58,418 nucleotides of DNA, from the sequence record PP627278.1. One strand, 5' to 3'. This DNA is from Escherichia phage KS_A3. Position numbers and translations under genes: made by a program. Of this stretch, positions 43,947 to 57,781 are shown piece after piece; within the stretch, counting starts at the first letter, position 1; each line of letters starts with the position of its first letter. The notes under the pieces were generated by a model. The model was not told the origin of the DNA and did no database searches. It worked only from the letters and a program-made list of their open reading frames with translations.

Positions 43947-44257
43947 TCTTGATTGTCGGATAGCTTACTTTGACTGCCGTCTTCGTCTATCCTGGCCTAC
44001 TTGTACAGCCTCGCCAAAGGCCGGTGACGGTTTGGTACATCTGGCGCCGTCTCGTTAAACATCGTTTACATCGTTCAGTAAGTTGCGGGTTTATCCTGTC
44101 CGCTCCAGGAAGCTCAGCGAAAGTAGTTGCTGTAAGGAGGTACAGCTACCGCTTTCAAGGGCTTGAGTTAAGCATCGTTCACTAAGTTAATGTTGTTAAA
44201 TTGTTAAACCTCGTTAACTGTGGTTATCTTAAAGGATGCAGTCTTGAATGGCAAGCT

Positions 44258-44572
44258 TCAATTTTGCGCGGTTCCCTTTGCCGCTTTTGGTGCTAAAGTA
44301 CCATCATTTAACATCAACTCAAAACCTGTTACTTGATCGGTTGGAACAATAGGGTAATTCATAATAGCCATGTGGATACGATGCCCTCCGTCACATTCAT
44401 CGATGTATTCATTGCCCCAATAGTATAAATGCCCATCTCTTCGAATATCCATTGCTGTTGGGAAATCAACAAGAATTCTTTTAATTTCTTTTCGTCCTTC
44501 TTTATGCAGATTAGTTTCAATACGAATAAGCTCCGCATAAATTGCTTCACAGATAGTGTTTACAATTCCCAT
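44258..44572 (-). CDS. hypothetical protein
   Basis: start at ATG 44572 with SD GAGGA; track ORF extends to 44644. Confidence 0.4.
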   Translation of the reverse strand: MGIVNTICEAIYAELIRIETNLHKEGRKEIKRILVDFPTAMDIRRDGHLYYWGNEYIDECDGGHRIHMAIMNYPIVPTDQVTGFELMLNDGTLAPKAAKGTAQN

Positions 44573-44576
44573 TTTT

Positions 44577-44792
44577 TCATTCCTCACAGTCTTTGATATT
44601 TTTAGGGATGAGAATATAACGATTGTGTTTTGGAAAATTATCACTGCAACAATTACAAAGACCTCCCATTACATTTTGATTACCTACAGCATGTAAAGAA
44701 CCGTCTAATCCGATAATGATTACATCATTATCAATGTAACCAAATTGATCAACCGGAGCCTGGCCTTCAATAACTTCTAATTCAATTTTCAT
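44577..44792 (-). CDS. hypothetical protein
   Basis: 71 aa (MKIELEV...), SD GAGGTG; track ORF over-extended to 44912. Confidence 0.4.
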   Translation of the reverse strand: MKIELEVIEGQAPVDQFGYIDNDVIIIGLDGSLHAVGNQNVMGGLCNCCSDNFPKHNRYILIPKNIKDCEE

Positions 44793-44800
44793 CTTACACC

Positions 44801-44875
44801 TCACAAAATATATGTAAACCAGAAATAACCAGCTACGAAAATAGCACCCGCAAATAATTTTAAAAGCTCGAACAT
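44801..44875 (-). CDS. 24-aa hydrophobic peptide (MFELLKLFAGAIFVAGYFWFTYIL)
   Basis: below the track's 60-aa cutoff; perfect SD GGAGG 5 nt before ATG; entirely hydrophobic. Confidence 0.35.
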   Translation of the reverse strand: MFELLKLFAGAIFVAGYFWFTYIL

Positions 44876-45033
44876 TGTTCCCTCCGTTAACTTTATGATG
44901 TAAGTATAGCAAGACTTACAATGTATGCAACAACTTTAGACTTGAAATACATCTATGAAATAGCACGATTTGCCTTTACCTCTGATCCGTCTAGCTGTAC
45001 TATTAACCCATAAACAGAGAGGAGGATTACAAA

Positions 45034-45258
45034 ATGGTCATGCTGAATAAAGTATATAGCACAATGGGCGCGGATTATAAAGTTGTACGTCATCCGCGTA
45101 CTGGTAAATTTGAAGCATACATCCGTCCAATGGGTGAAGGTTGGATGTATTACGGTACTTATGATGACGCTGAGCAAGCTTATAAAGAAGCGGAAAGTGT
45201 AGCGGAAGCATCCGAAATTATGGCAAGGTACGACGTCGATGATTACTACCTTAACTAA
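45034..45258 (+). CDS. hypothetical protein (lone + strand gene in early block)
   Basis: 74 aa, strong SD GAGAGGAGG, followed by bidirectional terminator. Confidence 0.5.
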   Translation: MVMLNKVYSTMGADYKVVRHPRTGKFEAYIRPMGEGWMYYGTYDDAEQAYKEAESVAEASEIMARYDVDDYYLN

Positions 45259-45290
45259 AAATAAAGGGCCTTTCGGCCCTTTATTTATTC
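45258..45290. terminator. bidirectional terminator
   Basis: AAAGGGCC-TTTC-GGCCCTTT hairpin flanked by A- and T-runs; between convergent genes. Confidence 0.55.
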
Positions 45291-47627
45291 CTCTTCTCCT
45301 AAGTTTGCCATAATACCTTCAACATCTTGCGTAATGCGCCAAGCTGCGCCAGTGAATCCCAGTTTGATAGTCTCCTCCCGTGTTACCGGAACAAGAGCAC
45401 CCATAGCAACCATTTCCTTGATCGTAGACTCGATCGCTGCGGACAATCCGTGGTGATAGTTTTTAAACGCGGACTTACTTGCAAGACGAGTAGTAATATC
45501 ACCCCGCGTGATAATGCCTTCCTTACGCAGATCTACACGTTTAACTTTCACCCAATCTTTAGTTAGATAATTCACACAAACCTGGCACATAGTACGGATA
45601 CGAGCTTCGTCATTAGTACCGATACCCCCACTATGCCATTCCTTCATAATGATATCCTGTCCATGACGCACAAAGTCCAAGGCCCATTGAACATGATAGG
45701 TCTGCACAACCGGATTGATCCAGTTTTCTCCCACAGCTAGCAGGGCGGATAGACGTAATACCTTCAGGTGCGCACGGTTCCAGGGCTGACGGATTGCTTC
45801 GTCTTTGGTTGCGTTAATATTACGGTCACATTCGTCGTTAAACTGATCACATAATGCTTCCGCATCCGGGCTAAACTGCACTTCAATACTTTGATGCTTT
45901 GCCATTGCGACTAAGGTGTGGTTAACAAGATGGCACACCATATCCCGCAAATGCTGATCCATTGTAGTCTGCTGGTTCTTGTTTAAAGGTGGTCGATCCC
46001 CTTCATAGCGGACAACATGGAAACGGGATAAGAAACCATCCTCCATCATTTCACGCGTCAACGCTTCAAAAAACGTGTCCGGTGTCGTTTCGCCCATGAT
46101 GCTATAGGCTACACCTTGTTGAGCTTCCGTATTATTAGCCTTATCAGAATAAGACATACCACCGACAATAGACATCTGACCGGACTTTTGATAAACATCG
46201 GTAAGGTCGTTCTTGAAGCTTTGCATCGGTGAACCTGCTGGCGCCGTTGCCATCGCTTTAATAATCTTACCAAACTCACCATTCAAGTTGATAAAAGATT
46301 GTTTGTCCGCAAAAGATTTACGCAGTGCGGAGCCGGAAGCACATCGGTCAAAAGATACAAAGCTATGAATCTGCGGAAACGGTTCCTGAAGCTGGCTAAC
46401 TATATTAGATAAGCCACTGTTCAACGTTTCTTTACCAACACCAGAACGGGCAATAAGGACGAAATATCCATTAAGACCGGATTGAGGAATCTGCCAAACC
46501 TTCCCGCATACGCCAGCCATAAATCCTAGTGCTGTCACAATAGAAATTTCTTTCACTGGCCGGACGGATGCTTTGTAGATGTACTTCGCAAGCTCCCCAG
46601 CAAGTCCCGGCGGCCAGTCAATAGCGGTTGCATCAATAGATGTACTTTCTGCAACTACTGTCTGCCCCTGTGTTGTTTCAACAGTTACGGGCATTTCCGC
46701 TACCTGCTGCATTGCACTGTGTGCCGCTTGCATACGGGCAGCATAATCCCGCGCCAGCGCCGCTACGTTTTCCTGGGCAATGCGCTCACGCTCCATACGA
46801 CCGCGGCACATGCGCAAACAACGGTCAATATGAACATTGTTCTTATTAGCCTTCTCACGTTTGCCCAGTGCACTGTAACGGAACAGACGGCGACATTGCT
46901 CATTACTTTCTGTGTAGAATGCATACATAGAAATAAGAGCAAGATCTGCTTCAGACTGGGAAGGGAATCCCATTTCAACCCATTCGCCATTGAATAGGCG
47001 TGCATACTTGTCCCCGTTGTCCGCTTCAAGTGCACGCTGGTGAATAGTTGCATCGTCTTCTACCGGATCTTTTTCTACCAGTTCAATTTCATATGTCTTG
47101 CGCTGAAGATCAATTTCATTCACAAGCATAGTAAGGTAATGATCACGTTCTGCAACTGGTTTGTTGTAGACGGGATTGCCCGTGCAGATAATAAAACGCT
47201 CCTGACTATAAACCTCGACACCATCACGTCGACGACCTTTACCGATGTTACCTCTTAACCACAGGTGAACACCCAAGCCTGAGCGGCTCACTTCGGTGTA
47301 AGTATCGAACGCAGTCATGATCTGTTCGAAGCGGCGCAACTGCTCCGGCGTCGTGTGCTTCTTGGGATCTGGTTCATTGGTTGCATTCTTCACATCCAGG
47401 TCGATGCAGGTGAACGGGTCTTGTGCAGTAAGCACAAAGCCAATATAAGGTTTATTGAAATGAGCGGCGCAACCTTTGGCAGCTTCAAACGTCATAAGCA
47501 TATCCGGATCGGTAACGTCCGCCGTCATCAAACGTCCAATATCGCTATCCCATACCAACGGCTTTTTATCCGCATCGGCGACCGCCCATTGTGGGAAAGC
47601 TTTAATTTCAGCGGGAAACAGTTCCAT
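45285..47627 (-). CDS. DNA primase (archaeo-eukaryotic primase / prim-pol type) with C-terminal NTPase-like domain
   Basis: 780 aa; AEP motifs CIDLDVK and SRSGLGVHLW; downstream P-loop-like ARSGVGKET. Confidence 0.6.
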   Translation of the reverse strand: MELFPAEIKAFPQWAVADADKKPLVWDSDIGRLMTADVTDPDMLMTFEAAKGCAAHFNKPYIGFVLTAQDPFTCIDLDVKNATNEPDPKKHTTPEQLRRFEQIMTAFDTYTEVSRSGLGVHLWLRGNIGKGRRRDGVEVYSQERFIICTGNPVYNKPVAERDHYLTMLVNEIDLQRKTYEIELVEKDPVEDDATIHQRALEADNGDKYARLFNGEWVEMGFPSQSEADLALISMYAFYTESNEQCRRLFRYSALGKREKANKNNVHIDRCLRMCRGRMERERIAQENVAALARDYAARMQAAHSAMQQVAEMPVTVETTQGQTVVAESTSIDATAIDWPPGLAGELAKYIYKASVRPVKEISIVTALGFMAGVCGKVWQIPQSGLNGYFVLIARSGVGKETLNSGLSNIVSQLQEPFPQIHSFVSFDRCASGSALRKSFADKQSFINLNGEFGKIIKAMATAPAGSPMQSFKNDLTDVYQKSGQMSIVGGMSYSDKANNTEAQQGVAYSIMGETTPDTFFEALTREMMEDGFLSRFHVVRYEGDRPPLNKNQQTTMDQHLRDMVCHLVNHTLVAMAKHQSIEVQFSPDAEALCDQFNDECDRNINATKDEAIRQPWNRAHLKVLRLSALLAVGENWINPVVQTYHVQWALDFVRHGQDIIMKEWHSGGIGTNDEARIRTMCQVCVNYLTKDWVKVKRVDLRKEGIITRGDITTRLASKSAFKNYHHGLSAAIESTIKEMVAMGALVPVTREETIKLGFTGAAWRITQDVEGIMANLGEEE

Positions 47628-47638
47628 GATTTATCCTT

Positions 47639-47854
47639 TTACTGAGAACTAACCATTGCACAACCGATGGCAGCAAATAAGTGCTTCTTAGTCTCGTTGA
47701 TCACTTTCTCTGCATCCAGATAGCTCTCATAATGTCCAAGGTAAATAATAGTCCCTGCAACCATAATATAAGCTGTGCGGTAATGCATATAATGCCCAAT
47801 GAACCATCCCTGCTCCCGAAGCTTATTTTGTCCAACTTCACTAAGTACCATCAT
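47639..47854 (-). CDS. hypothetical protein
   Basis: 71 aa ORF. Confidence 0.4.
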   Translation of the reverse strand: MMVLSEVGQNKLREQGWFIGHYMHYRTAYIMVAGTIIYLGHYESYLDAEKVINETKKHLFAAIGCAMVSSQ

Positions 47855-48054
47855 GACCTCCGACGCTTATCGCCTTGCATCTTTTCCAGGGCGGGCACTG
47901 CTAAGGAACGTTTGTAGATGTACTGGTTAGCAATTCTGATAGCGCCCGGAATGCTGTCACGTATGCGCGACATCTTAAACTTAGATATACCATAACGGTC
48001 TTCAATTTCCGCCGCCGTTATGTAGTTCAAATCAAATTCTGATTCGTGATCCAT
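47851..48054 (-). CDS. hypothetical protein
   Basis: start at ATG 48054 with strong SD GGAGGG (track start 48108). Confidence 0.4.
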   Translation of the reverse strand: MDHESEFDLNYITAAEIEDRYGISKFKMSRIRDSIPGAIRIANQYIYKRSLAVPALEKMQGDKRRRS

Positions 48055-48119
48055 AATACCCTCCGTTACAACCGTCCACACAATACACAGTAAAGTCTTA
48101 CTTTGCAACTATTTTTGCA

Positions 48120-48848
48120 TTATTGCGGAGTTGTGATAATATGGTTACCAACTTCTAACATAACGTCCTGCGGCTCCCTTCCCTGTCTTAAGCTAATGAG
48201 CCAATTATCAATATTAGGAAGAATATTTTTAGCCTGCTCAGAATCCCTGTAGAGTGCAAGGTCTACCCATTGAGCCCCAAGCTTCACACGGATAGCGGTA
48301 GCGGTTTCGTAATGGTGCAGGGAACACGTAGGCCAGCGACCACGATTATCCCAGTCCTGGATATCGCCGCTCCGGCGCATTCTGTACCAACGATGGGTTA
48401 GTTTATCCATTTCCTTATCCGTCAGAGCATCCCCTTTAAGTAACGCTTGGCGCTGTATCCAGGCCTTAAGCTCGGCGTTTTGCTTGCGCCCGGTTTTACC
48501 CTTATCTACTTTTACCTTAAGTGCTTCCTCATAGGGATCGTTACCCTTGCCCATGTGGTAATTGAATTTGCCCGTATAGCTGCGAAGCTCTTTGGCGTCC
48601 AGTTCATGTCCCAGCTTATCGCTCACCCATGCAAGAAAAGCCGCACGCTCTGCATCCAGCTTACCCGCTTTTTGTCTTACCGCTTTTTTAACTGGTTGCT
48701 CCACATCTTCGTTGAAGTAATCCTCCACCATAGCAAGCGCCTGAGCCTTAGTGGGCACGCCCCGTAACCGCGAGCACGCTTGCACGACCCAGGCAGCAAA
48801 GCACAAATCCTTAACCACAGTTTTAGATGTAATAGTTTCTTCGCTCAT
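48120..48848 (-). CDS. hypothetical protein (first gene downstream of AT-rich iteron region)
   Basis: 242 aa, SD AGGAGG. Confidence 0.5.
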   Translation of the reverse strand: MSEETITSKTVVKDLCFAAWVVQACSRLRGVPTKAQALAMVEDYFNEDVEQPVKKAVRQKAGKLDAERAAFLAWVSDKLGHELDAKELRSYTGKFNYHMGKGNDPYEEALKVKVDKGKTGRKQNAELKAWIQRQALLKGDALTDKEMDKLTHRWYRMRRSGDIQDWDNRGRWPTCSLHHYETATAIRVKLGAQWVDLALYRDSEQAKNILPNIDNWLISLRQGREPQDVMLEVGNHIITTPQ

Positions 48849-48859
48849 AAATCCTCCTA

Positions 48860-49150
48860 GTGAACTGGTAATGCCACTATAAAACAGCTATTAGCTATTT
48901 GCAAGAATTGTTTTAATATAGTGCTTAGTGGCGTACATAGTGGGCAAAGCGTGTATAGTACGCCGTTACTGGCTTTGTAAAAGTTTGCCACTATAAACCA
49001 CTATCCCACTATTCACTAATTTTTTATTTTTACACAGAGCAAAGTTTATAAGTTTACGGTTTTCCCCTTATTACCCCGTTTTCAAACAAAGAATTAGTAG
49101 TAGTAGTGAAAACGTGTAAATGCCACTATCACTACTATACTATTAATTAT
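48860..49150. repeat. iteron-like array of CCACTAT motifs in both orientations
   Basis: about ten copies of CCACTAT or its complement ATAGTGG clustered at 48872-49145. Confidence 0.6.
48876..48904 (-). promoter_or_regulatory. candidate sigma70-like promoter
   Basis: on - strand TTGCAA, 17-nt spacer, TATAGT; about 25 nt upstream of the 48848 start codon. Confidence 0.35.
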
Positions 49151-49517
49151 CTGAAAAAAGTTGGGAGTATACCCCTATAAACTTATAAACTTTCAGTCAA
49201 CTAACTAAAATAAACCTAATTAAACTAATATTAATAATAACTATAAATATATATAAAATAAGGATTTATTATTATTGTATATAGTACCTATTGGTATTAT
49301 GTGATGAGTTTATAGTCATTAAATAAACTCTATAAATTTTAATAAACCTGAACGGATGCAGATCAAAAACGAGAAGTCAAGTGCTTTTGAGGGAAATTTA
49401 TTGAACTATTGTAATCGGAAGGTATATCAAGCTATAATGCGCTTAATCGCGGGATATTGGAGGAGGACTTTATTGCGCGGTTAACCGGACCAGTAGGAGG
49501 GCTGGCCCGGAAGTAGT

Positions 49518-49844
49518 TTAGAGCTGTACAGGTGTGAAGTGGGCTAGCGTATCGTCGGACATAACACCCGACAGTTTTTCGCTTACCCATTCGGACCAAA
49601 TACTATCCGGTTCCTGGCGGTGTACAAACCAGATCTCGGATGTGCCTTCTTTGCGCATCGGTTGCACTTCTGCAAGGAACTTGTCCTGCATAAGGCGGGT
49701 GAAGCAGACGCTGGTCATTGGAACCGGCTTTTCGTCCTTATTGTAATAAGGGATTAATATTTTATTCCCGAAGTTGCCAACTTCATAAACTGTTCCTTTG
49801 CGAAGCCCTCTGATGTCTGTGTAAGAGCGGATGAACGTTTTCAT
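49518..49844 (-). CDS. hypothetical protein
   Basis: 108 aa ORF with SD AGGAG. Confidence 0.45.
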   Translation of the reverse strand: MKTFIRSYTDIRGLRKGTVYEVGNFGNKILIPYYNKDEKPVPMTSVCFTRLMQDKFLAEVQPMRKEGTSEIWFVHRQEPDSIWSEWVSEKLSGVMSDDTLAHFTPVQL

Positions 49845-49894
49845 GTTTACTCCTAGGGCTCCCGCAGAAGCCCGTTGGTTGATGTGGTTATAGA

Positions 49895-50377
49895 TTATGC
49901 GTCCAGTCCGTGGTTGGCGTGAAATTTGTAATGCTCTTCCGCTTGTTTACGGGCCTGTTTTGCGTCCTCTATAGTATCATATAAACCTAGATACTTTTTC
50001 AATCCGTTTATTTGAATGTAAGCCTGAAATTTACATGCCTTTTTATTAAAGTAAACTCCTGTTACTCCGGTAGAGTTATTTATTGCCCTGCTAAGATTTT
50101 TACTATTATCGCTTGGCAACACTAAGCGCAAATTCTCTATGCGGTCGTCCCATGTACAATGATTAATATGGTCTATTTGATGCCCTTCCGGTATCGGGCC
50201 TTTATGCAACTCCCATACTAACCTTGAACGACGATATAGTTTTCCCTTGTATCCTATCAGGATGTATCCGCGCTTATTTGGTACACCAGCTTTACTACCG
50301 ATAGAAATCTGTTTAGCTGGTTTTATTTTCCAAAATAATTCTCCGTTTTGATAGCTGAAGATATTATTTAAGTCCAT
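49895..50377 (-). CDS. HNH homing endonuclease with AP2-like DNA-binding domain
   Basis: 160 aa; IDHINHCTWDDRIENL HNH motif; GVTGVYFNKK...YLGLYDTIEDA AP2-like segment. Confidence 0.65.
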   Translation of the reverse strand: MDLNNIFSYQNGELFWKIKPAKQISIGSKAGVPNKRGYILIGYKGKLYRRSRLVWELHKGPIPEGHQIDHINHCTWDDRIENLRLVLPSDNSKNLSRAINNSTGVTGVYFNKKACKFQAYIQINGLKKYLGLYDTIEDAKQARKQAEEHYKFHANHGLDA

Positions 50378-50975
50378 GATAAGTTCTCCAAGCGTAGAAC
50401 TGAATGGCGACCGTTGTCCCGTTGTAAGAAGGCATTGCAGCTTTCATTTCTTTCAGCTCCGGCGTGCGGCCCAGTTCGGCTAAAAGTTTATCGCCCATTG
50501 CCCACACTTCGGCGGTTTTTCCTTTCAGAGGCTTGCGAGCGCCATTTTTGAAATCGCAGCGAGCAGCTTTTGCATCCTGTTTTGGCGCGGCAGCTTTTGG
50601 CTCTTCAATTTTGATCTCAGAAACCTGCGTGGCAGCTTTTGCGTGTTTCATATCTTTCTCTTCCTCCTGCTCCAGAGCTTCGAGGCAGCTTTTGACGATT
50701 TCCGGATTTACCATCGGGCGCAGTACCGAGACGCTGGCAGCTGGCGCGGCGGTTGGTGCTGGGACTTTCTGCTCCGGCTGTTGCGCTTTTTTATGGTCGC
50801 GCAGTACCTGAAGCACTTCCTTCTCGACGATGTAAAAACCAATCTCATCCTGATGGATTAACTGCTCGTGTGCGTCGCGTGCAACCTGGCCCCAGCGGGT
50901 CTTAAGGGCGCGGCGTGCATTCGTTTTCATGGTGTAACGCATTTTGTCCTGTTCGCGGTGAGTTACTTTAGACAT
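50364..50975 (-). CDS. hypothetical protein
   Basis: 203 aa, SD AAGGAG. Confidence 0.45.
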   Translation of the reverse strand: MSKVTHREQDKMRYTMKTNARRALKTRWGQVARDAHEQLIHQDEIGFYIVEKEVLQVLRDHKKAQQPEQKVPAPTAAPAASVSVLRPMVNPEIVKSCLEALEQEEEKDMKHAKAATQVSEIKIEEPKAAAPKQDAKAARCDFKNGARKPLKGKTAEVWAMGDKLLAELGRTPELKEMKAAMPSYNGTTVAIQFYAWRTYHGLK

Positions 50976-51054
50976 GGTATAGCTCCTTTAGTTATCTTGC
51001 TTAAGTAGGTTTATTATAACAGACTGTGTTTCAGTCTGTTAGATATAAATCAAC

Positions 51055-51279
51055 TTATTTAACCATCAAGGCCCATCTTTTATAGCCGTTCAGCTCCAGT
51101 CTATGACCGTGATCGTTGCAATAACGTTGGATATTATTAAAGTCGTTATCATTCATATCGCTAACATCAATATTAAAATAGTTGCGCTTTGCAGCTGTAA
51201 CGTATTGGGACAATTGTATTGAGTACAGATGTTCAATGTTGTCGATAATAGCTTGCTGAACTTTAGTGATAGTAGCCAT
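51055..51279 (-). CDS. hypothetical protein
   Basis: 74 aa; preceded on - strand by an A8-G9 homopolymer pair acting as SD. Confidence 0.4.
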   Translation of the reverse strand: MATITKVQQAIIDNIEHLYSIQLSQYVTAAKRNYFNIDVSDMNDNDFNNIQRYCNDHGHRLELNGYKRWALMVK

Positions 51280-51286
51280 GATGCAA

Positions 51287-51303
51287 CCCCCCCCCTTTTT
51301 TTT
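51287..51303. repeat. C9-T8 homopolymer tract
   Basis: CCCCCCCCCTTTTTTTT read directly; 7 nt upstream of the - strand ATG. Confidence 0.9.
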
Positions 51304-51532
51304 ATGTGGTTAAGCAGTATTTCTTTGTTGAAGTAATAATAGTCTTGCATCGTGATATTAAATAGGCCAAAAGTGCTCTTTTAGAATTGTTTTGCATCTA
51401 GTGAAAAATACGCTTGCCCTGCATGTTTAGCACTAAGGGCCTAACTAACATCACATCATCTGGAGTATTCGCGCAGGTGTACACATACATATAAAGCTGC
51501 CAAATATTTTTATAAAAAGATGCAAAAAGGTG

Positions 51533-51561
51533 TAGACACATGATCGGTCTAGCACTACTAT
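51533..51561 (+). promoter_or_regulatory. candidate promoter for + strand late/accessory block
   Basis: TAGACA, 17-nt spacer, TACTAT, about 45 nt upstream of the 51608 start. Confidence 0.3.
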
Positions 51562-51607
51562 ATACATACCGCAAGGTGCTACAAATTAACTTAAAGGGGT
51601 CTACATC

Positions 51608-51892
51608 ATGTCCATCGTCACTATGTCGTTCTTCGACCATTGCAATAACGAAAAACAAATTATCGTGAACCTGCAAAAAGGATCTGTTGTCGCACGCAAT
51701 GCTAACCGCCAATGCATCGCGCTAACCGATTTTGCTTTCCGCCTTAACGTGGACAACACTACCGCCAAAAATATCGTTCACGATACAGCGTTGGAAGCTG
51801 CTCACGCTGCGAAGGATAAAGGTATCCGCGACGCACGCAAAATCATGCACAAGGCGCTCGGCATCACGTTCTTCGTTGGGATTAAGGGGTAA
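51608..51892 (+). CDS. hypothetical protein
   Basis: 94 aa ORF with SD. Confidence 0.45.
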   Translation: MSIVTMSFFDHCNNEKQIIVNLQKGSVVARNANRQCIALTDFAFRLNVDNTTAKNIVHDTALEAAHAAKDKGIRDARKIMHKALGITFFVGIKG

Positions 51893-51897
51893 CTACT

Positions 51898-52038
51898 ATG
51901 TCACGCAAATACACGCTTACACGCGCACAGCACGCGTTATTATTGCAGGTTATGCGCGCAGAATATGCAGTTCATGGCTGGCATAGTGCCATGATGCGCG
52001 GTAAAAGCATATATGCGGACATGCGCTCGCAAGGATAA
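51898..52038 (+). CDS. hypothetical small protein (46 aa)
   Basis: below track cutoff; SD AAGGGG; basic (MSRKYTLTRAQHALLLQVMRAEYAVHGWHSAMMRGKSIYADMRSQG). Confidence 0.3.
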   Translation: MSRKYTLTRAQHALLLQVMRAEYAVHGWHSAMMRGKSIYADMRSQG

Positions 52039-52465
52039 CGCACACAGCAGCACCACAGCGAGCTAATGTACATAGGTAATGGTAATGCATTAGCTCGGGC
52101 GAAACAGGCGCACAGCGTCGCACACAGCTCGCACAGCGCACACAGACCCACGCAGGCCCAGCCGCGCGACCCGACCCACCCTTTTCCAGGTACTTGGATC
52201 GCTGGGGCGTGCCCTGTCTATCCTGATAGTAAGTCCTTGCCTAAATCTCACCTGTCACATCCCTGTCCGCCTACATCCATGACCCCACCTACCTTCTTTT
52301 TGAATATATTGCGCTCATCCTTTCTAAATATATGGATTTTGGTAGTAAATTCTGAGTCGTCAACGTATAATTCGTCTTGTAGCTGCTCCATAGCTATCAT
52401 CTTTAAGCGGATGCAACCAATTTCTATCAGTTCACACCTGTTTTTAGAGCATCGAGGAGGTATTT

Positions 52466-52717
52466 ATGTGCGACTCCAGTGCAAGCGCTGCACCCAGCAC
52501 CTCCAGCAATGTGGTTACAGAGGTAAATGCAATGCGATTAGGCCCATATCGCGGGTATTATGGTCGGGCAGCATGGAATGACGCTACTCAACGTTTTGAA
52601 GGCTGGATTATCTGTCCGGAACGTGTTAAATTTCACTCCGTAAAAGAGAAAAATATCGTTCTTAATTTTCAAAAATGTGTCACTAAATATGTAGAGGAGC
52701 AAGAAGAATGCGTGTAA
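52466..52717 (+). CDS. hypothetical protein
   Basis: 83 aa, strong SD GAGGAGG. Confidence 0.5.
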   Translation: MCDSSASAAPSTSSNVVTEVNAMRLGPYRGYYGRAAWNDATQRFEGWIICPERVKFHSVKEKNIVLNFQKCVTKYVEEQEECV

Positions 52718-52950
52718 AAGACGAGCAAAAGACAGTTGACTACTTCGGAATGCAAATTGTTGTTCCGGAATGGGTTAAATGGCTTGCTGTCGATGGTGAC
52801 GGTAAATTATTCGGTTATGAATGTGAGCCCGACATTTTAGTTAATGAAGATTGGGATGAATGGTACAGTGAAGAAGGTAAATGCCGCTGCATTACAGAAG
52901 TCATCCTTGAAGAAGAACATTGGTCACAAACCTTAGTGGAGCTTTTTTAA
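52708..52950 (+). CDS. hypothetical protein, paralogous family member
   Basis: 80 aa; VPEWVKWLAVDGDGKLFGYE...WSQTLVEL. Confidence 0.5.
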   Translation: MRVKDEQKTVDYFGMQIVVPEWVKWLAVDGDGKLFGYECEPDILVNEDWDEWYSEEGKCRCITEVILEEEHWSQTLVELF

Positions 52951-53240
52951 TGCACGTAGAAGATATTGTTGAAGGTAAAGAGTATCGTTTACTGACCGAT
53001 ATTGGTGGTGTCGGATATACTCCGGATGATGCAGCTTGTTTTAATGTCCTTCCGCAAGGTGCTATCGTGACAGTTAACAAGGTCGTTACCGATTTATACA
53101 GTGTTCATGACGGCAGATGGCCACATGCAGTTATTGTTACCTTCGGTAAAGATGGTTATGTGGACCTTGATGGCGAAGACGATACTTACGAAGTTGCTTA
53201 TACAGGTCTGGTAAGCCCCAATTTCCTGGAAGAAGTATAA
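52950..53240 (+). CDS. hypothetical protein
   Basis: ATG at 52950 overlaps upstream stop (TAATG); track start 52920 is over-extended. Confidence 0.45.
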   Translation: MHVEDIVEGKEYRLLTDIGGVGYTPDDAACFNVLPQGAIVTVNKVVTDLYSVHDGRWPHAVIVTFGKDGYVDLDGEDDTYEVAYTGLVSPNFLEEV

Positions 53241-53291
53241 TTATCAATCTATAATGGGCTCTACGGAGCCCTTAATTATCTGGAGATTGTT

Positions 53292-53588
53292 ATGCTGTAT
53301 TTAGGAATGGACGAAACTGGACACGCGATTCCTTCTGTTAACAAGGAGACGCAAGTATTTACCGACTATTACGGGTCTGCTATCCCTGTAGAGCCCTGGG
53401 CTAACTTTATCGCTGTAGATGCAGATGGTAAAGTTCATTGTTATGACGGCAAACCTTCTTGCTATCAATCTGGTAAGCAATGGATGCTTGGCGTATACGG
53501 TTTGCAGGTCCGCTACTGCGGCGAAGTTGACATTGAAGGTGTGGACTGGCGCGATACGTTGAAGGAGATTAAAGATGTCCGCGGCTGA
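53292..53588 (+). CDS. hypothetical protein, paralogous family member
   Basis: 98 aa; VEPWANFIAVDADGKVHCYD...WRDTLKEI. Confidence 0.5.
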   Translation: MLYLGMDETGHAIPSVNKETQVFTDYYGSAIPVEPWANFIAVDADGKVHCYDGKPSCYQSGKQWMLGVYGLQVRYCGEVDIEGVDWRDTLKEIKDVRG

Positions 53589-53661
53589 AGTTACGACATT
53601 TATAATAGCTTTTGCTGTTGCTTTATTCCTTATAGCTAAGTTAGATTTAATGATGGGATAG
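53575..53661 (+). CDS. 28-aa hydrophobic peptide (MSAAEVTTFIIAFAVALFLIAKLDLMMG)
   Basis: below track cutoff; SD AAGGAG 8 nt upstream; single predicted TM helix. Confidence 0.3.
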   Translation: MSAAEVTTFIIAFAVALFLIAKLDLMMG

Positions 53662-53664
53662 TTT

Positions 53665-53889
53665 ATGCGCTTACTCATGGTGTTAGGCGTTATACTTGCC
53701 GCTTTCGTTGTATTTGCAATTGTAGACTCTAAAGAAATGGAGCGGCAAAACTGCCAACGTACTGGTAACAGCCGGGATGATATCATTTGGCAATATATTT
53801 ACGATGCAAAAGGTAATGTTATGTCAATGTATCCTCAGGTTATTACTGAGTATGAATATAAATGTAATGACCGTAACAGGTGGAGATAA
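53665..53889 (+). CDS. hypothetical membrane protein
   Basis: 74 aa, N-terminal TM helix. Confidence 0.45.
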   Translation: MRLLMVLGVILAAFVVFAIVDSKEMERQNCQRTGNSRDDIIWQYIYDAKGNVMSMYPQVITEYEYKCNDRNRWR

Positions 53890-54083
53890 TAATGGATAGA
53901 CTATCCGATGAGCGCGTTGCTAAGCTTGCAGAATATGACTGTGCAAGCAATGAGGAGGTTATGTCTTTAGCACAAGAGGTGAAGGAACTTCGAGCTGTAG
54001 CAAAGGACTTCCTGCGTCGTAATAAATATGGTCCTTTGTTCTATCGTGATCTGTATAACCGTTTTAAGGAGATTGTGAAATGA
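53880..54083 (+). CDS. hypothetical protein
   Basis: 67 aa ORF. Confidence 0.4.
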   Translation: MEIIMDRLSDERVAKLAEYDCASNEEVMSLAQEVKELRAVAKDFLRRNKYGPLFYRDLYNRFKEIVK

Positions 54084-54349
54084 TTACCGCTCAAGAAGCT
54101 CGTGAATTAAGCGATAAGCTGGATATTAGCGAAGATATTGAATTTATCAGTAACAGCATTCGCGTAGCTGCTACAAAGGGATACAATAAAGTATCACTGG
54201 TAACAAAATACGGATCTGTTGGCAATCCCGACACTCAAGACCCAACCACTATGAAGATTGCTAAATGGTTAGCTGATTCTGGTTTTACGGTGTTATATTA
54301 TCCTTCAATGGACCAACGTGATAACGAGCGTACTGAGGTAGCATGGTGA
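54080..54349 (+). CDS. hypothetical protein
   Basis: 89 aa ORF. Confidence 0.4.
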   Translation: MITAQEARELSDKLDISEDIEFISNSIRVAATKGYNKVSLVTKYGSVGNPDTQDPTTMKIAKWLADSGFTVLYYPSMDQRDNERTEVAW

Positions 54350-54416
54350 TTGAAGAAAATATCAAATATTGGAAAGGCTTTATTGACGAAATGTTGAAAC
54401 CATTGGAGAAGAAATA

Positions 54417-54809
54417 ATGCTATTAGTCGTCACCGGAGGTCGAGATTTTAAGCATGTGGAGTATATTTACGCTCAATTGGATAAGCTGCATATGCAAAGA
54501 AGGATAACCACACTTCGCCACGGTGACGCTGACGGTGTTGACCGCATTTGCGCACATTGGGCAGAGCGCAACGGTATTAAGACAGAAGCGTTCCCTGCCC
54601 CGTGGGACAATCTTTCCTTACCAAATACCAAGATACGGTATAACGCCAAGGGTGCTTATAATGCACAAGCTGGCGCATACCGTAACCAATTAATGTTGGA
54701 TACTGATCCTAAACCAGATCACGCTATTGTGTTTCCTGGCGGAGCTGGTACTATGGATATGTACAGACGGATTAAAGCATCCGGTATTCCTTACACTTTA
54801 GCGGAGTAA
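54417..54809 (+). CDS. SLOG/DUF2493-like Rossmann-fold protein
   Basis: 130 aa; VTGGRDF...HGDADGVDRICAHWA...FPGGAGT pattern typical of SLOG (Smf/DprA-LOG) family. Confidence 0.4.
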   Translation: MLLVVTGGRDFKHVEYIYAQLDKLHMQRRITTLRHGDADGVDRICAHWAERNGIKTEAFPAPWDNLSLPNTKIRYNAKGAYNAQAGAYRNQLMLDTDPKPDHAIVFPGGAGTMDMYRRIKASGIPYTLAE

Positions 54810-57436: not shown

Positions 57437-57781
57437 ATGTTCAATTCACCCAACGAACATTGGGCAGTTCTAGCGGGGTTTGCGTTTATCTCCCTCATTG
57501 GGGGAGCTCTCGGTTATGTCATGCGTACAATAGACGCTGGTAAGAAAGTACGGGCAAGCATTGCATTTCTTGAAGGCTTATCCGCCGCTTTCTTTGGCGT
57601 TATAATGTATGCGATCTACAGGGAGTTTAACATCAGCCTTTGGTTCGCTTTTGGCCTTGCTGGCCTATTTGCTTGGGTAGGTTCACGTGCTACGCTAAAA
57701 GCCCTAACGTCGCTTATAGCTTCACGGACAGGGATCAAACTCGATTCAGGGGACTGCAAACATGAAAACGATTCTAAATAA
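57437..57781 (+). CDS. holin
   Basis: 114 aa, three predicted TM helices, charged C-terminus, SD GGAGGG. Confidence 0.55.
   Translation: MFNSPNEHWAVLAGFAFISLIGGALGYVMRTIDAGKKVRASIAFLEGLSAAFFGVIMYAIYREFNISLWFAFGLAGLFAWVGSRATLKALTSLIASRTGIKLDSGDCKHENDSK

Follow-up and report, generated by a model that had tools for sequence, protein, structure and literature searches.

Bacteria make very small membrane proteins, including KdpF (29 amino acids, aa), AcrZ (49 aa), MgtS, and CydX, that regulate larger membrane complexes and consist of little more than one hydrophobic helix. For small membrane proteins, the signal recognition particle (SRP) provides post-translational targeting, and YidC or SecYEG carries out the insertion (PMC12648545). 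We analyzed two short open reading frames (ORFs) in Escherichia phage KS_A3 (sequence record PP627278.1) that appear to encode peptides of this class. The window is the whole stretch of 58,418 nt, and all positions given without a genome name are window positions. ORF1 is on the minus strand (44801-44875) and has 24 codons, with the product MFELLKLFAGAIFVAGYFWFTYIL, a predicted single-helix peptide rich in aromatic residues. ORF2 is on the plus strand (53575-53661) and has 28 codons, with the product MSAAEVTTFIIAFAVALFLIAKLDLMMG, also a predicted single-helix peptide. The two predicted products are like KdpF, AcrZ, MgtS, and CydX in size class, in having one hydrophobic helix and almost no soluble part, and, by analogy, in their expected post-translational insertion and proposed helix-helix partner binding (PMC12648545). 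They have no sequence relationship to these proteins, and they differ in being phage-encoded, in early-type operons.

The type I toxins IbsC (19 aa), ShoB, TisB, and Hok are like the ORF1 and ORF2 peptides in shortness, near-total transmembrane character, and strong hydrophobicity. They differ from ORF1 and ORF2, which match no type I toxin family, have no identified antisense RNA partner, and are in operons of a lytic phage rather than in a chromosomal toxin-antitoxin locus. Imm and Sp of phage T4 and gp15 of HK97 are early phage membrane proteins that block superinfection or DNA entry and are larger than the ORF1 and ORF2 products. The likeness here is that all are membrane-located phage products, and such a role would be plausible for ORF1, a promoter-proximal core gene; we know of no exclusion phenotype for Seuratvirus. 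The E5 protein of bovine papillomavirus (44 aa) and the artificial 'traptamers' are essentially a transmembrane helix alone and bind a host transmembrane domain. They are the closest functional analogy to what we propose below, although E5 comes from a eukaryotic virus and is unrelated in sequence, so that the likeness is conceptual only.

We consider it probable that ORF1 and ORF2 are real genes, translated into micro-proteins that cross the membrane once, with ORF1 as a core gene and ORF2 as an optional cassette; the products would most likely act as helix-helix modulators. ORF1 starts with an ATG at 44875-44873 and stops with a TGA at 44803-44801. The original prediction, which was made from the letters of the window, described a 24-codon ORF with GGAGG 5 nt upstream and gave no strand; this ORF is present, on the minus strand, from 44875 to 44801. 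The GGAGG (44881-44885, minus strand) is a Shine-Dalgarno (SD) sequence separated from the ATG by a 5-nt spacer (gaaca), and an SD is retained in all relatives, with AAGGAG in Salmonella phage STP-SP5. The energy of the ORF1 SD/anti-SD duplex is -10.0 kcal/mol, which is in the top 3% of the 72 ORFs of at least 100 aa (a crude set from the window) and the top 0.8% among all plus-strand ATGs. The ORF1 stop overlaps the SD of the next cistron, as had been claimed: the TGA at 44803-44801 runs into GAGGTG (44802-44797, minus strand), where the conserved module ends.

ORF1 was intact in every relative that we compared. Over 44000-46000 and 53000-54500, the sequence of Escherichia phage KS_S4 (PP627282.1; Queuovirinae, Seuratvirus; from sewage in Japan) agrees with the window at 100% identity, and about 35 related genomes match these regions at 88-98% identity. 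We compared the ORF1 locus in 25 GenBank/IMG-VR relatives and 10 metagenome contigs; in all 35, ORF1 was intact, of the same length, and preceded by an SD. In a tblastn search with ORF1, each of the 36 phage records that include this region gave a match. IMG/VR has only three Seuratvirus contigs, and scans of bacterial and archaeal genomes yielded no relative of either peptide. The original prediction had named conservation of the two reading frames as a way to check it, and the frames were conserved: ORF1 as just described, and ORF2 with 28 codons wherever it is present.

Changes in ORF1 had the distribution expected for a coding sequence. Among close relatives, variant alleles fell at the first, second, and third codon positions in the numbers 5, 5, and 20 (chi-square p = 5.5e-4). 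There were 19 synonymous and 13 non-synonymous changes, with 19% expected to be synonymous (binomial p = 7e-7), and the pairwise NG86 ratio of non-synonymous to synonymous substitution rates (dN/dS, omega) was 0.04-0.15. Stop codons interrupt four of the other five frames over ORF1, and the third-position bias was seen in the ORF1 frame and not in the flanking intergenic DNA. The plus-strand ORF 44921-45013, used as a control from the same region, gave counts of 12, 10, and 10 by codon position and was broken in three relatives. We conclude that ORF1 is very probably a real gene and, judging from its distribution, a core gene of the Seuratvirus lineage. Its amino-acid sequence is under purifying selection.

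ORF1 was also found in more distant phages. STP-SP5 (69% DNA identity) has a 24-codon ORF, MFEFVKIFASVIFIALYFWLMYWV, with its own AAGGAG and with the start and stop retained; ten of its 11 replacements are to hydrophobic or aromatic residues and the other is Gly to Ser. SA126VB has a recombinant 3' end within ORF1, and its length is still 24 codons. Pantoea phage Vid5 (NC_042120.1) belongs to a different genus, with a primase C terminus that is 55% identical, and its genes come in the same order: the primase gene, a small gene in divergent orientation, and then a leftward operon. The first annotated gene of that operon, Vid5_ORF59 (1893-2027 of Vid5, minus strand), was called as 44 aa from a TTG. 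An internal ATG after AGGGGGG would give a 24-aa peptide, MGYILSLISSGLFAFAYFYIVWWL, with a stop that overlaps the next start (TAATG), and the annotated start of Vid5_ORF59 is probably wrong. The positional similarity between the Vid5 peptide and the ORF1 family exceeds that due to composition alone (shuffle p about 5e-4), and the KS_S4, STP-SP5, and Vid5 versions each have 24 residues, 8-9 of them aromatic. There was no such ORF in the 98-nt intergenic sequence beside the primase of Nonagvirus JenP1, and the annotation table of Nipunavirus PaMx25 has a 95-nt gap beside the primase and no divergent gene. On a helical wheel of ORF1, drawn with just two diverged sequences, the invariant residues formed no clear conserved face.

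The ORF1 region appears to have moved between phage families. A distant-mode DNA search matched it to the Felixounavirus phages SWJM-02 and SPJ41 (ON868915.1), which encode the ORF1 peptide. In Salmonella phage SWJM-02, positions 2492-2771 correspond to window positions 44973 to 44695 at ~93% identity; this segment carries the promoter, an intact ORF1, and the beginning of the gene that follows. The presence of the promoter-ORF1 segment in Felix-O1-like myoviruses suggests recent horizontal transfer between unrelated phage families. The segment in SWJM-02 is near a homing endonuclease, between the DNA polymerase and ligase genes.

Most likely, a leftward transcript has ORF1 as its first cistron, behind a leader of ~20 nt. 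The putative sigma-70 promoter (44903-44930, minus strand) has a -35-like TTGCAT (44930-44925), a 16-nt spacer, and an extended -10, TGcTATACT (44911-44903); STP-SP5 has TGcTATAAT at a distance to ORF1 equal to that of the extended -10 in KS_S4. The 100 nt upstream of ORF1 are the most conserved part of the intergenic region. A consensus promoter scan did not list the ORF1 promoter site, and its -35 matches the consensus at just three of six positions. The gene after ORF1 begins with an ATG at 44792 and is a variable 'cargo' gene (44577-44792, minus strand; 71 aa in KS_S4), with at least eight different genes in this slot among the relatives. In most of them, DNA homology with KS_S4 ends at that ATG, which makes a sharp mosaic boundary. 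Because homology stops there, with at least eight unrelated genes beyond it, the conserved unit comprises the promoter, ORF1, and the SD used by the next gene, and variable cargo lies beyond it. We found no terminator-like site between ORF1 and the next gene. The operon also includes the DNA-metabolism genes for RusA, HNH, and dUTPase.

ORF2 is an accessory gene in a rightward operon. The original prediction of a 28-codon ORF at 53575-53661 that has an AAGGAG SD and overlaps the preceding gene was borne out. The AAGGAG (53562-53567, plus strand) is separated from the ATG by 7 nt and falls within the coding sequence of the gene upstream, which encodes 98 aa (phrog_1972; 53292-53588, plus strand); the stop of that gene is at 53586-53588, and its last 14 nt overlap ORF2. 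The energy of the SD/anti-SD duplex, -8.8 kcal/mol, is in the top 8% of the same crude set of 72 ORFs and the top 1.6% of plus-strand ATGs. We compared the ORF2 junction in 24 relatives by DNA alignment, since tblastn with ORF2 gave no match, probably owing to the low-complexity filter; ORF2 was present in 15, with 28 codons in all 15, and BLAST coverage suggests that it is in about 20 of 33 records. Its stop is TAG, TAA, or TGA in different relatives, always at the same position. Variant alleles by codon position numbered 4, 1, and 9, with 7 synonymous and 7 non-synonymous changes (p = 0.03 and 0.01), and the replacements were mostly conservative (A/V, V/I, I/L, L/F, M/F, M/I), with the exception of G28W in ECP2304. 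Seven CAjan-type relatives lack ORF2 and have a clean gap of ~75 nt, so that the upstream gene runs into the next one; phiG7 and DruSM1 have other genes at its position. In SA80RD and CSP1, ORF2 is present without the 74-aa gene (phrog_8826; 53665-53889, plus strand) that in the window begins 4 nt past the ORF2 stop. From this pattern of presence and absence, ORF2 appears to be an independent, dispensable cassette.

The 74-aa gene that follows ORF2 has an N-terminal membrane anchor with a maximum Kyte-Doolittle mean of 3.21 and two Cys in its C-terminal part. ORF2 and this gene are thus predicted to make two membrane products back to back, each of which occurs alone in some relatives. A 161-aa ORF on the minus strand (53301-53786) covers ORF2 and both of its neighbors. 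We rejected it as a shadow ORF; it is broken in many relatives, in which the longest open stretch is 45-52 codons.

The co-occurrence of a good SD and a hydrophobic product is rarely expected by chance. We screened both strands of the whole window for ORFs that start with ATG, encode 18-40 aa, and have a 5-mer SD 4-9 nt upstream, and compared the result with 200 first-order Markov random sequences. There were 4 such ORFs in the window versus 3.4 in random sequence, so the count alone is unremarkable. Two of the screened ORFs, ORF1 and ORF2, were hydrophobic, compared to 0.12 expected (P(>=2) = 0.015). Conservation is much stronger evidence for ORF1 and ORF2 than this chance count.

The two peptides have the properties of single membrane-spanning helices. 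In line with the claim that both are single-helix membrane peptides, a single hydrophobic segment makes up much of each one and is of sufficient length to cross the membrane. Averaged over 15 residues, Kyte-Doolittle hydropathy reaches a maximum of 1.87 in ORF1 and 2.79 in ORF2, and the grand averages of hydropathy (GRAVY) are 1.55 and 1.73, respectively. About one third of the ORF1 peptide is aromatic, and its sole basic residue is Lys6, near the N terminus. Neither peptide is a lipoprotein or an o-spanin, because neither contains Cys. Searches of Pfam (E <= 1), NCBIfam (E <= 10), PHROGs, and PDB sequences gave no match for either one. When we looked for a relationship of the KdpF or AcrZ type, there was no profile match and no adjacent gene for a partner complex; the neighbors encode small phage proteins of unknown function.

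We propose that ORF1 is expressed as the first cistron from a conserved extended -10 promoter beside the primase gene, using what would be among the strongest ribosome-binding sites in the genome, and that its stop in the next SD probably hands ribosomes on to the variable cargo gene. The product would be a 24-residue helix, just long enough to cross the inner membrane. Translation of such short peptides would terminate before they come out of the ribosome, so that both would have to insert post-translationally, and Lys6 of ORF1 suggests an orientation with the N terminus in and the C terminus out. ORF2 would be an optional cassette, coupled in translation to its upstream neighbor, in a rightward operon whose genes are small and of unknown function. 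Both peptides would be made from early-type operons well away from the lysis cassette and would most likely bind, helix to helix, an inner-membrane protein of the host or the phage, modulating it rather than causing bulk damage to the membrane. The original prediction placed the peptides in a class that includes membrane-protein modulators and toxins; we read that only as a list of possibilities.

Several points weigh against this proposal. Neither peptide has homology to a characterized family, and the mode of action is proposed by analogy only. Translation of ORF1, like that of ORF2, is deduced from sequence, as are membrane insertion, topology, the timing of expression, and the target of each peptide, and the papers that we searched on Seuratvirus gave no results from ribosome profiling, proteomics, or transcript mapping. 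Most of the relatives are >90% identical, which keeps the numbers of substitutions low and means that they are not independent phylogenetically, especially for ORF2 with its 14 variant alleles. The coding statistics for ORF2 are weaker than those for ORF1, and ORF2 is missing from about a third of the relatives and is hence dispensable. The highly conserved promoter-proximal region of ORF1 may owe part of its conservation to a role as a recombination or expression module. Judging from its coordinates, deletion of the ORF called PH_ORF69 in the related phage DruSM1 would remove the putative -35 of ORF1, and that phage is viable, so high expression of ORF1 from this promoter may be nonessential (10.1101/2024.04.14.589459). 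Lastly, the Vid5 counterpart has no charged residues; the charge-based argument for topology is weak and does not generalize.

A bolder version of this proposal seems to us possible and well short of probable. ORF1 could represent a new family of genus-wide core micro-proteins, bare transmembrane helices of 24 residues that are one third aromatic and are the first product of an early-type promoter, that bind the transmembrane region of a specific inner-membrane protein of E. coli, as a natural counterpart of papillomavirus E5 and the 'traptamers', with a family that extends to Vid5-like phages and moves horizontally into Felix-O1-like phages. With the same low confidence, examples of targets in such a case might be a DNA-entry channel, which would give superinfection exclusion, or a membrane-anchored defense sensor or effector.

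ORF1 might instead be mainly a translated leader that acts in cis, by loading ribosomes, by protecting the mRNA from RNase or Rho, and by coupling translation to the next gene, with the peptide being incidental. We regard this as rather unlikely as a full explanation. It would fit the position of ORF1 as first cistron, ~20 nt from the putative start of transcription, and the stop inside the next SD, with a junction that is kept while at least eight alternative genes exchange downstream; the TAATG overlap of stop and start is in the same place in Vid5. However, the amino-acid sequence of ORF1 is constrained and not merely the open frame (omega 0.04-0.15; 19 synonymous to 13 non-synonymous changes), and length, hydrophobicity, and the aromatic C-terminal half are kept both at 69% DNA identity and in Vid5. 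Predicted folding of the RNA from 44900 to 44760 was no more stable than that of shuffled sequence (z = 0.58), and there was no structure that would sequester the SD or resemble an attenuator. Coupling and a function of the peptide are compatible with each other. The selection on the peptide argues against ribosome loading as the sole role of ORF1.

The peptides might also be toxins that damage the membrane, either like the type I toxins or as pore formers, and act in host shut-off or in the timing of lysis. Their size and extreme hydrophobicity resemble those of IbsC (19 aa), ShoB, and TisB (PMC12648545), and one third of the ORF1 residues are aromatic. We consider this unlikely, slightly more so than the leader. 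No toxin-family hidden Markov model in Pfam or NCBIfam, including any type I toxin profiles there, matched ORF1 or ORF2, and there was no sign of an antisense regulator. ORF1 is promoter-proximal in an operon with RusA, HNH, and dUTPase, where depolarization would harm the phage in the course of its replication. Neither ORF adjoins the lysis cassette, which starts at the holin gene (phrog_785; 57437-57781), 3.8 kb from ORF2 and 12.5 kb from ORF1. The gene after the holin encodes 157 aa; its best match is phrog_5975 (unknown function), and it has a weaker match to an Rz-like spanin family.

It is improbable that one or both ORFs are untranslated, with ORF1 being part of a promoter, untranslated region, or recombination module and ORF2 a remnant at a junction. 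The region upstream of ORF1 is highly conserved too, most annotators called neither ORF, ORF2 is dispensable and its statistics are weak, and about 3.4 ATG ORFs of 18-40 aa with a 5-mer SD, of any hydrophobicity, are expected per window by chance. Against these stand the third-position bias in exactly the ORF1 frame, which is unlike that of the flanks and of the control ORF on the opposite strand, and the integrity of ORF1 in 35 of 35 relatives, diverged ones included. The ORF2 stop stays in one place while it switches among TAG, TAA, and TGA, and the window has 2 small ORFs that combine an SD with a hydrophobic product, versus the 0.12 expected by chance. Rfam gave no match in the region above the curated gathering scores and no small RNA family, and there is no stable RNA structure. 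For ORF1 we regard non-coding explanations as unlikely, and for ORF2 they are only a little more likely.

We dismiss the idea that the ORF1 region, read in the +2 frame, extends the downstream gene at its N terminus (a 111-aa TTG ORF at 44577-44912 in the window): over ORF1, 23 of 25 relatives have that frame free of stops and several gene callers chose an extended start, but its changes by codon position (20/5/6) and its 5 synonymous versus 26 non-synonymous changes are a non-coding pattern, unrelated downstream genes all start at the same ATG just past GAGGTG, and homology breaks at that ATG in most relatives. Upstream starts across ORF1 in the +2 frame are annotated for bas22_0063 of KurtStettler, bas24_0063 of SeppeHuegi, and CDS0063 of KS_W4.

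Both ORFs have been annotated before, in very few genomes. The sole annotated ORF1 is CSP1_063 (24 aa) of Cronobacter phage CSP1; ORF2 is annotated as CSP1_042 (28 aa) in CSP1 and as CPT_Seurat76 (28 aa) in phage Seurat. An exact look-up gave only these CSP1 and Seurat entries, which are labeled only hypothetical or uncharacterized. They are the same genes as ORF1 and ORF2, with 86-100% amino-acid identity and the same genomic positions. In the other 30-odd genomes of the group, ORF1 and ORF2 are unannotated or overlaid by spurious calls; neither is annotated in PP627282.1. The minimum gene length of Prodigal is 90 nt. We propose that most annotations miss ORF1 (75 nt) and ORF2 (87 nt) since both are shorter than this limit.

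A neighboring ORF that has been annotated is probably not a gene. The plus-strand ORF 44921-45013 (30 aa), which is CDS0064 of KS_S4 and PH_ORF69 of DruSM1 and is annotated in several relatives, lacks codon periodicity (12/10/10), and its frame is broken in three relatives. KS_S4 and DruSM1 belong to the same phage group, and a gene-by-gene knockout library of DruSM1 has been published (10.1101/2024.04.14.589459). Deletion of PH_ORF69 in DruSM1 was reported to have a phenotype against the hhe defense system (10.1101/2024.04.14.589459). It is more likely that this phenotype is due to the loss of promoter sequences of the adjacent 74-aa gene (45034-45258, plus strand). The homologue of that gene, ORF65 of DruSM1, is reported to counter hhe (10.1101/2024.04.14.589459).

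ORF1 and ORF2 are uncharacterized members of a well-known class, the small phage and bacterial membrane proteins that annotation misses, and their existence is unsurprising to a specialist. If they are, as seems probable, real genes lost to the length limits of gene callers, then annotation should be corrected in ~35 genomes. The BASEL collection makes use of this phage genus, every member of which has ORF1. ORF1 is present in DruSM1, the phage of the knockout library, and is outside the 105 ORFs tested by Ojima et al. (10.1101/2024.04.14.589459). Because ORF1 is unannotated, knockout and anti-defense screens are blind at the head of its operon, beside the reported anti-hhe gene, and both ORFs are worth including in such screens of Seuratvirus phages. 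If it is true that ORF1 targets a host membrane protein, the peptide would be a very small and easily synthesized tool.

On the side away from its operon, ORF1 is separated from the primase gene by a 158-nt divergent intergenic region, the 74-aa plus-strand gene at 45034-45258, and a hairpin at 45259-45286. The hairpin is GC-rich, has 12 bp and T-runs on both sides, and lies between the 74-aa gene and the primase gene; it is likely a bidirectional terminator. The homologous hairpin is annotated as a bidirectional terminator in Seurat, SA126VB, and SA80RD.

The window and PP627282.1 differ slightly in length. The offset between their coordinates is 111 at 44 kb and 108 at 53 kb, with both stretches 100% identical, and there is accordingly a 3-nt length difference somewhere within 46000-53000. 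The primase gene (45285-47627, minus strand) varies in its 3' part among the relatives: the C-terminal 304 aa are of two types within Seuratvirus, ~99% identical in some phages and ~61% identical in others (e.g., SD04 and SLUR63). The two types suggest replacement of a module inside an essential gene.

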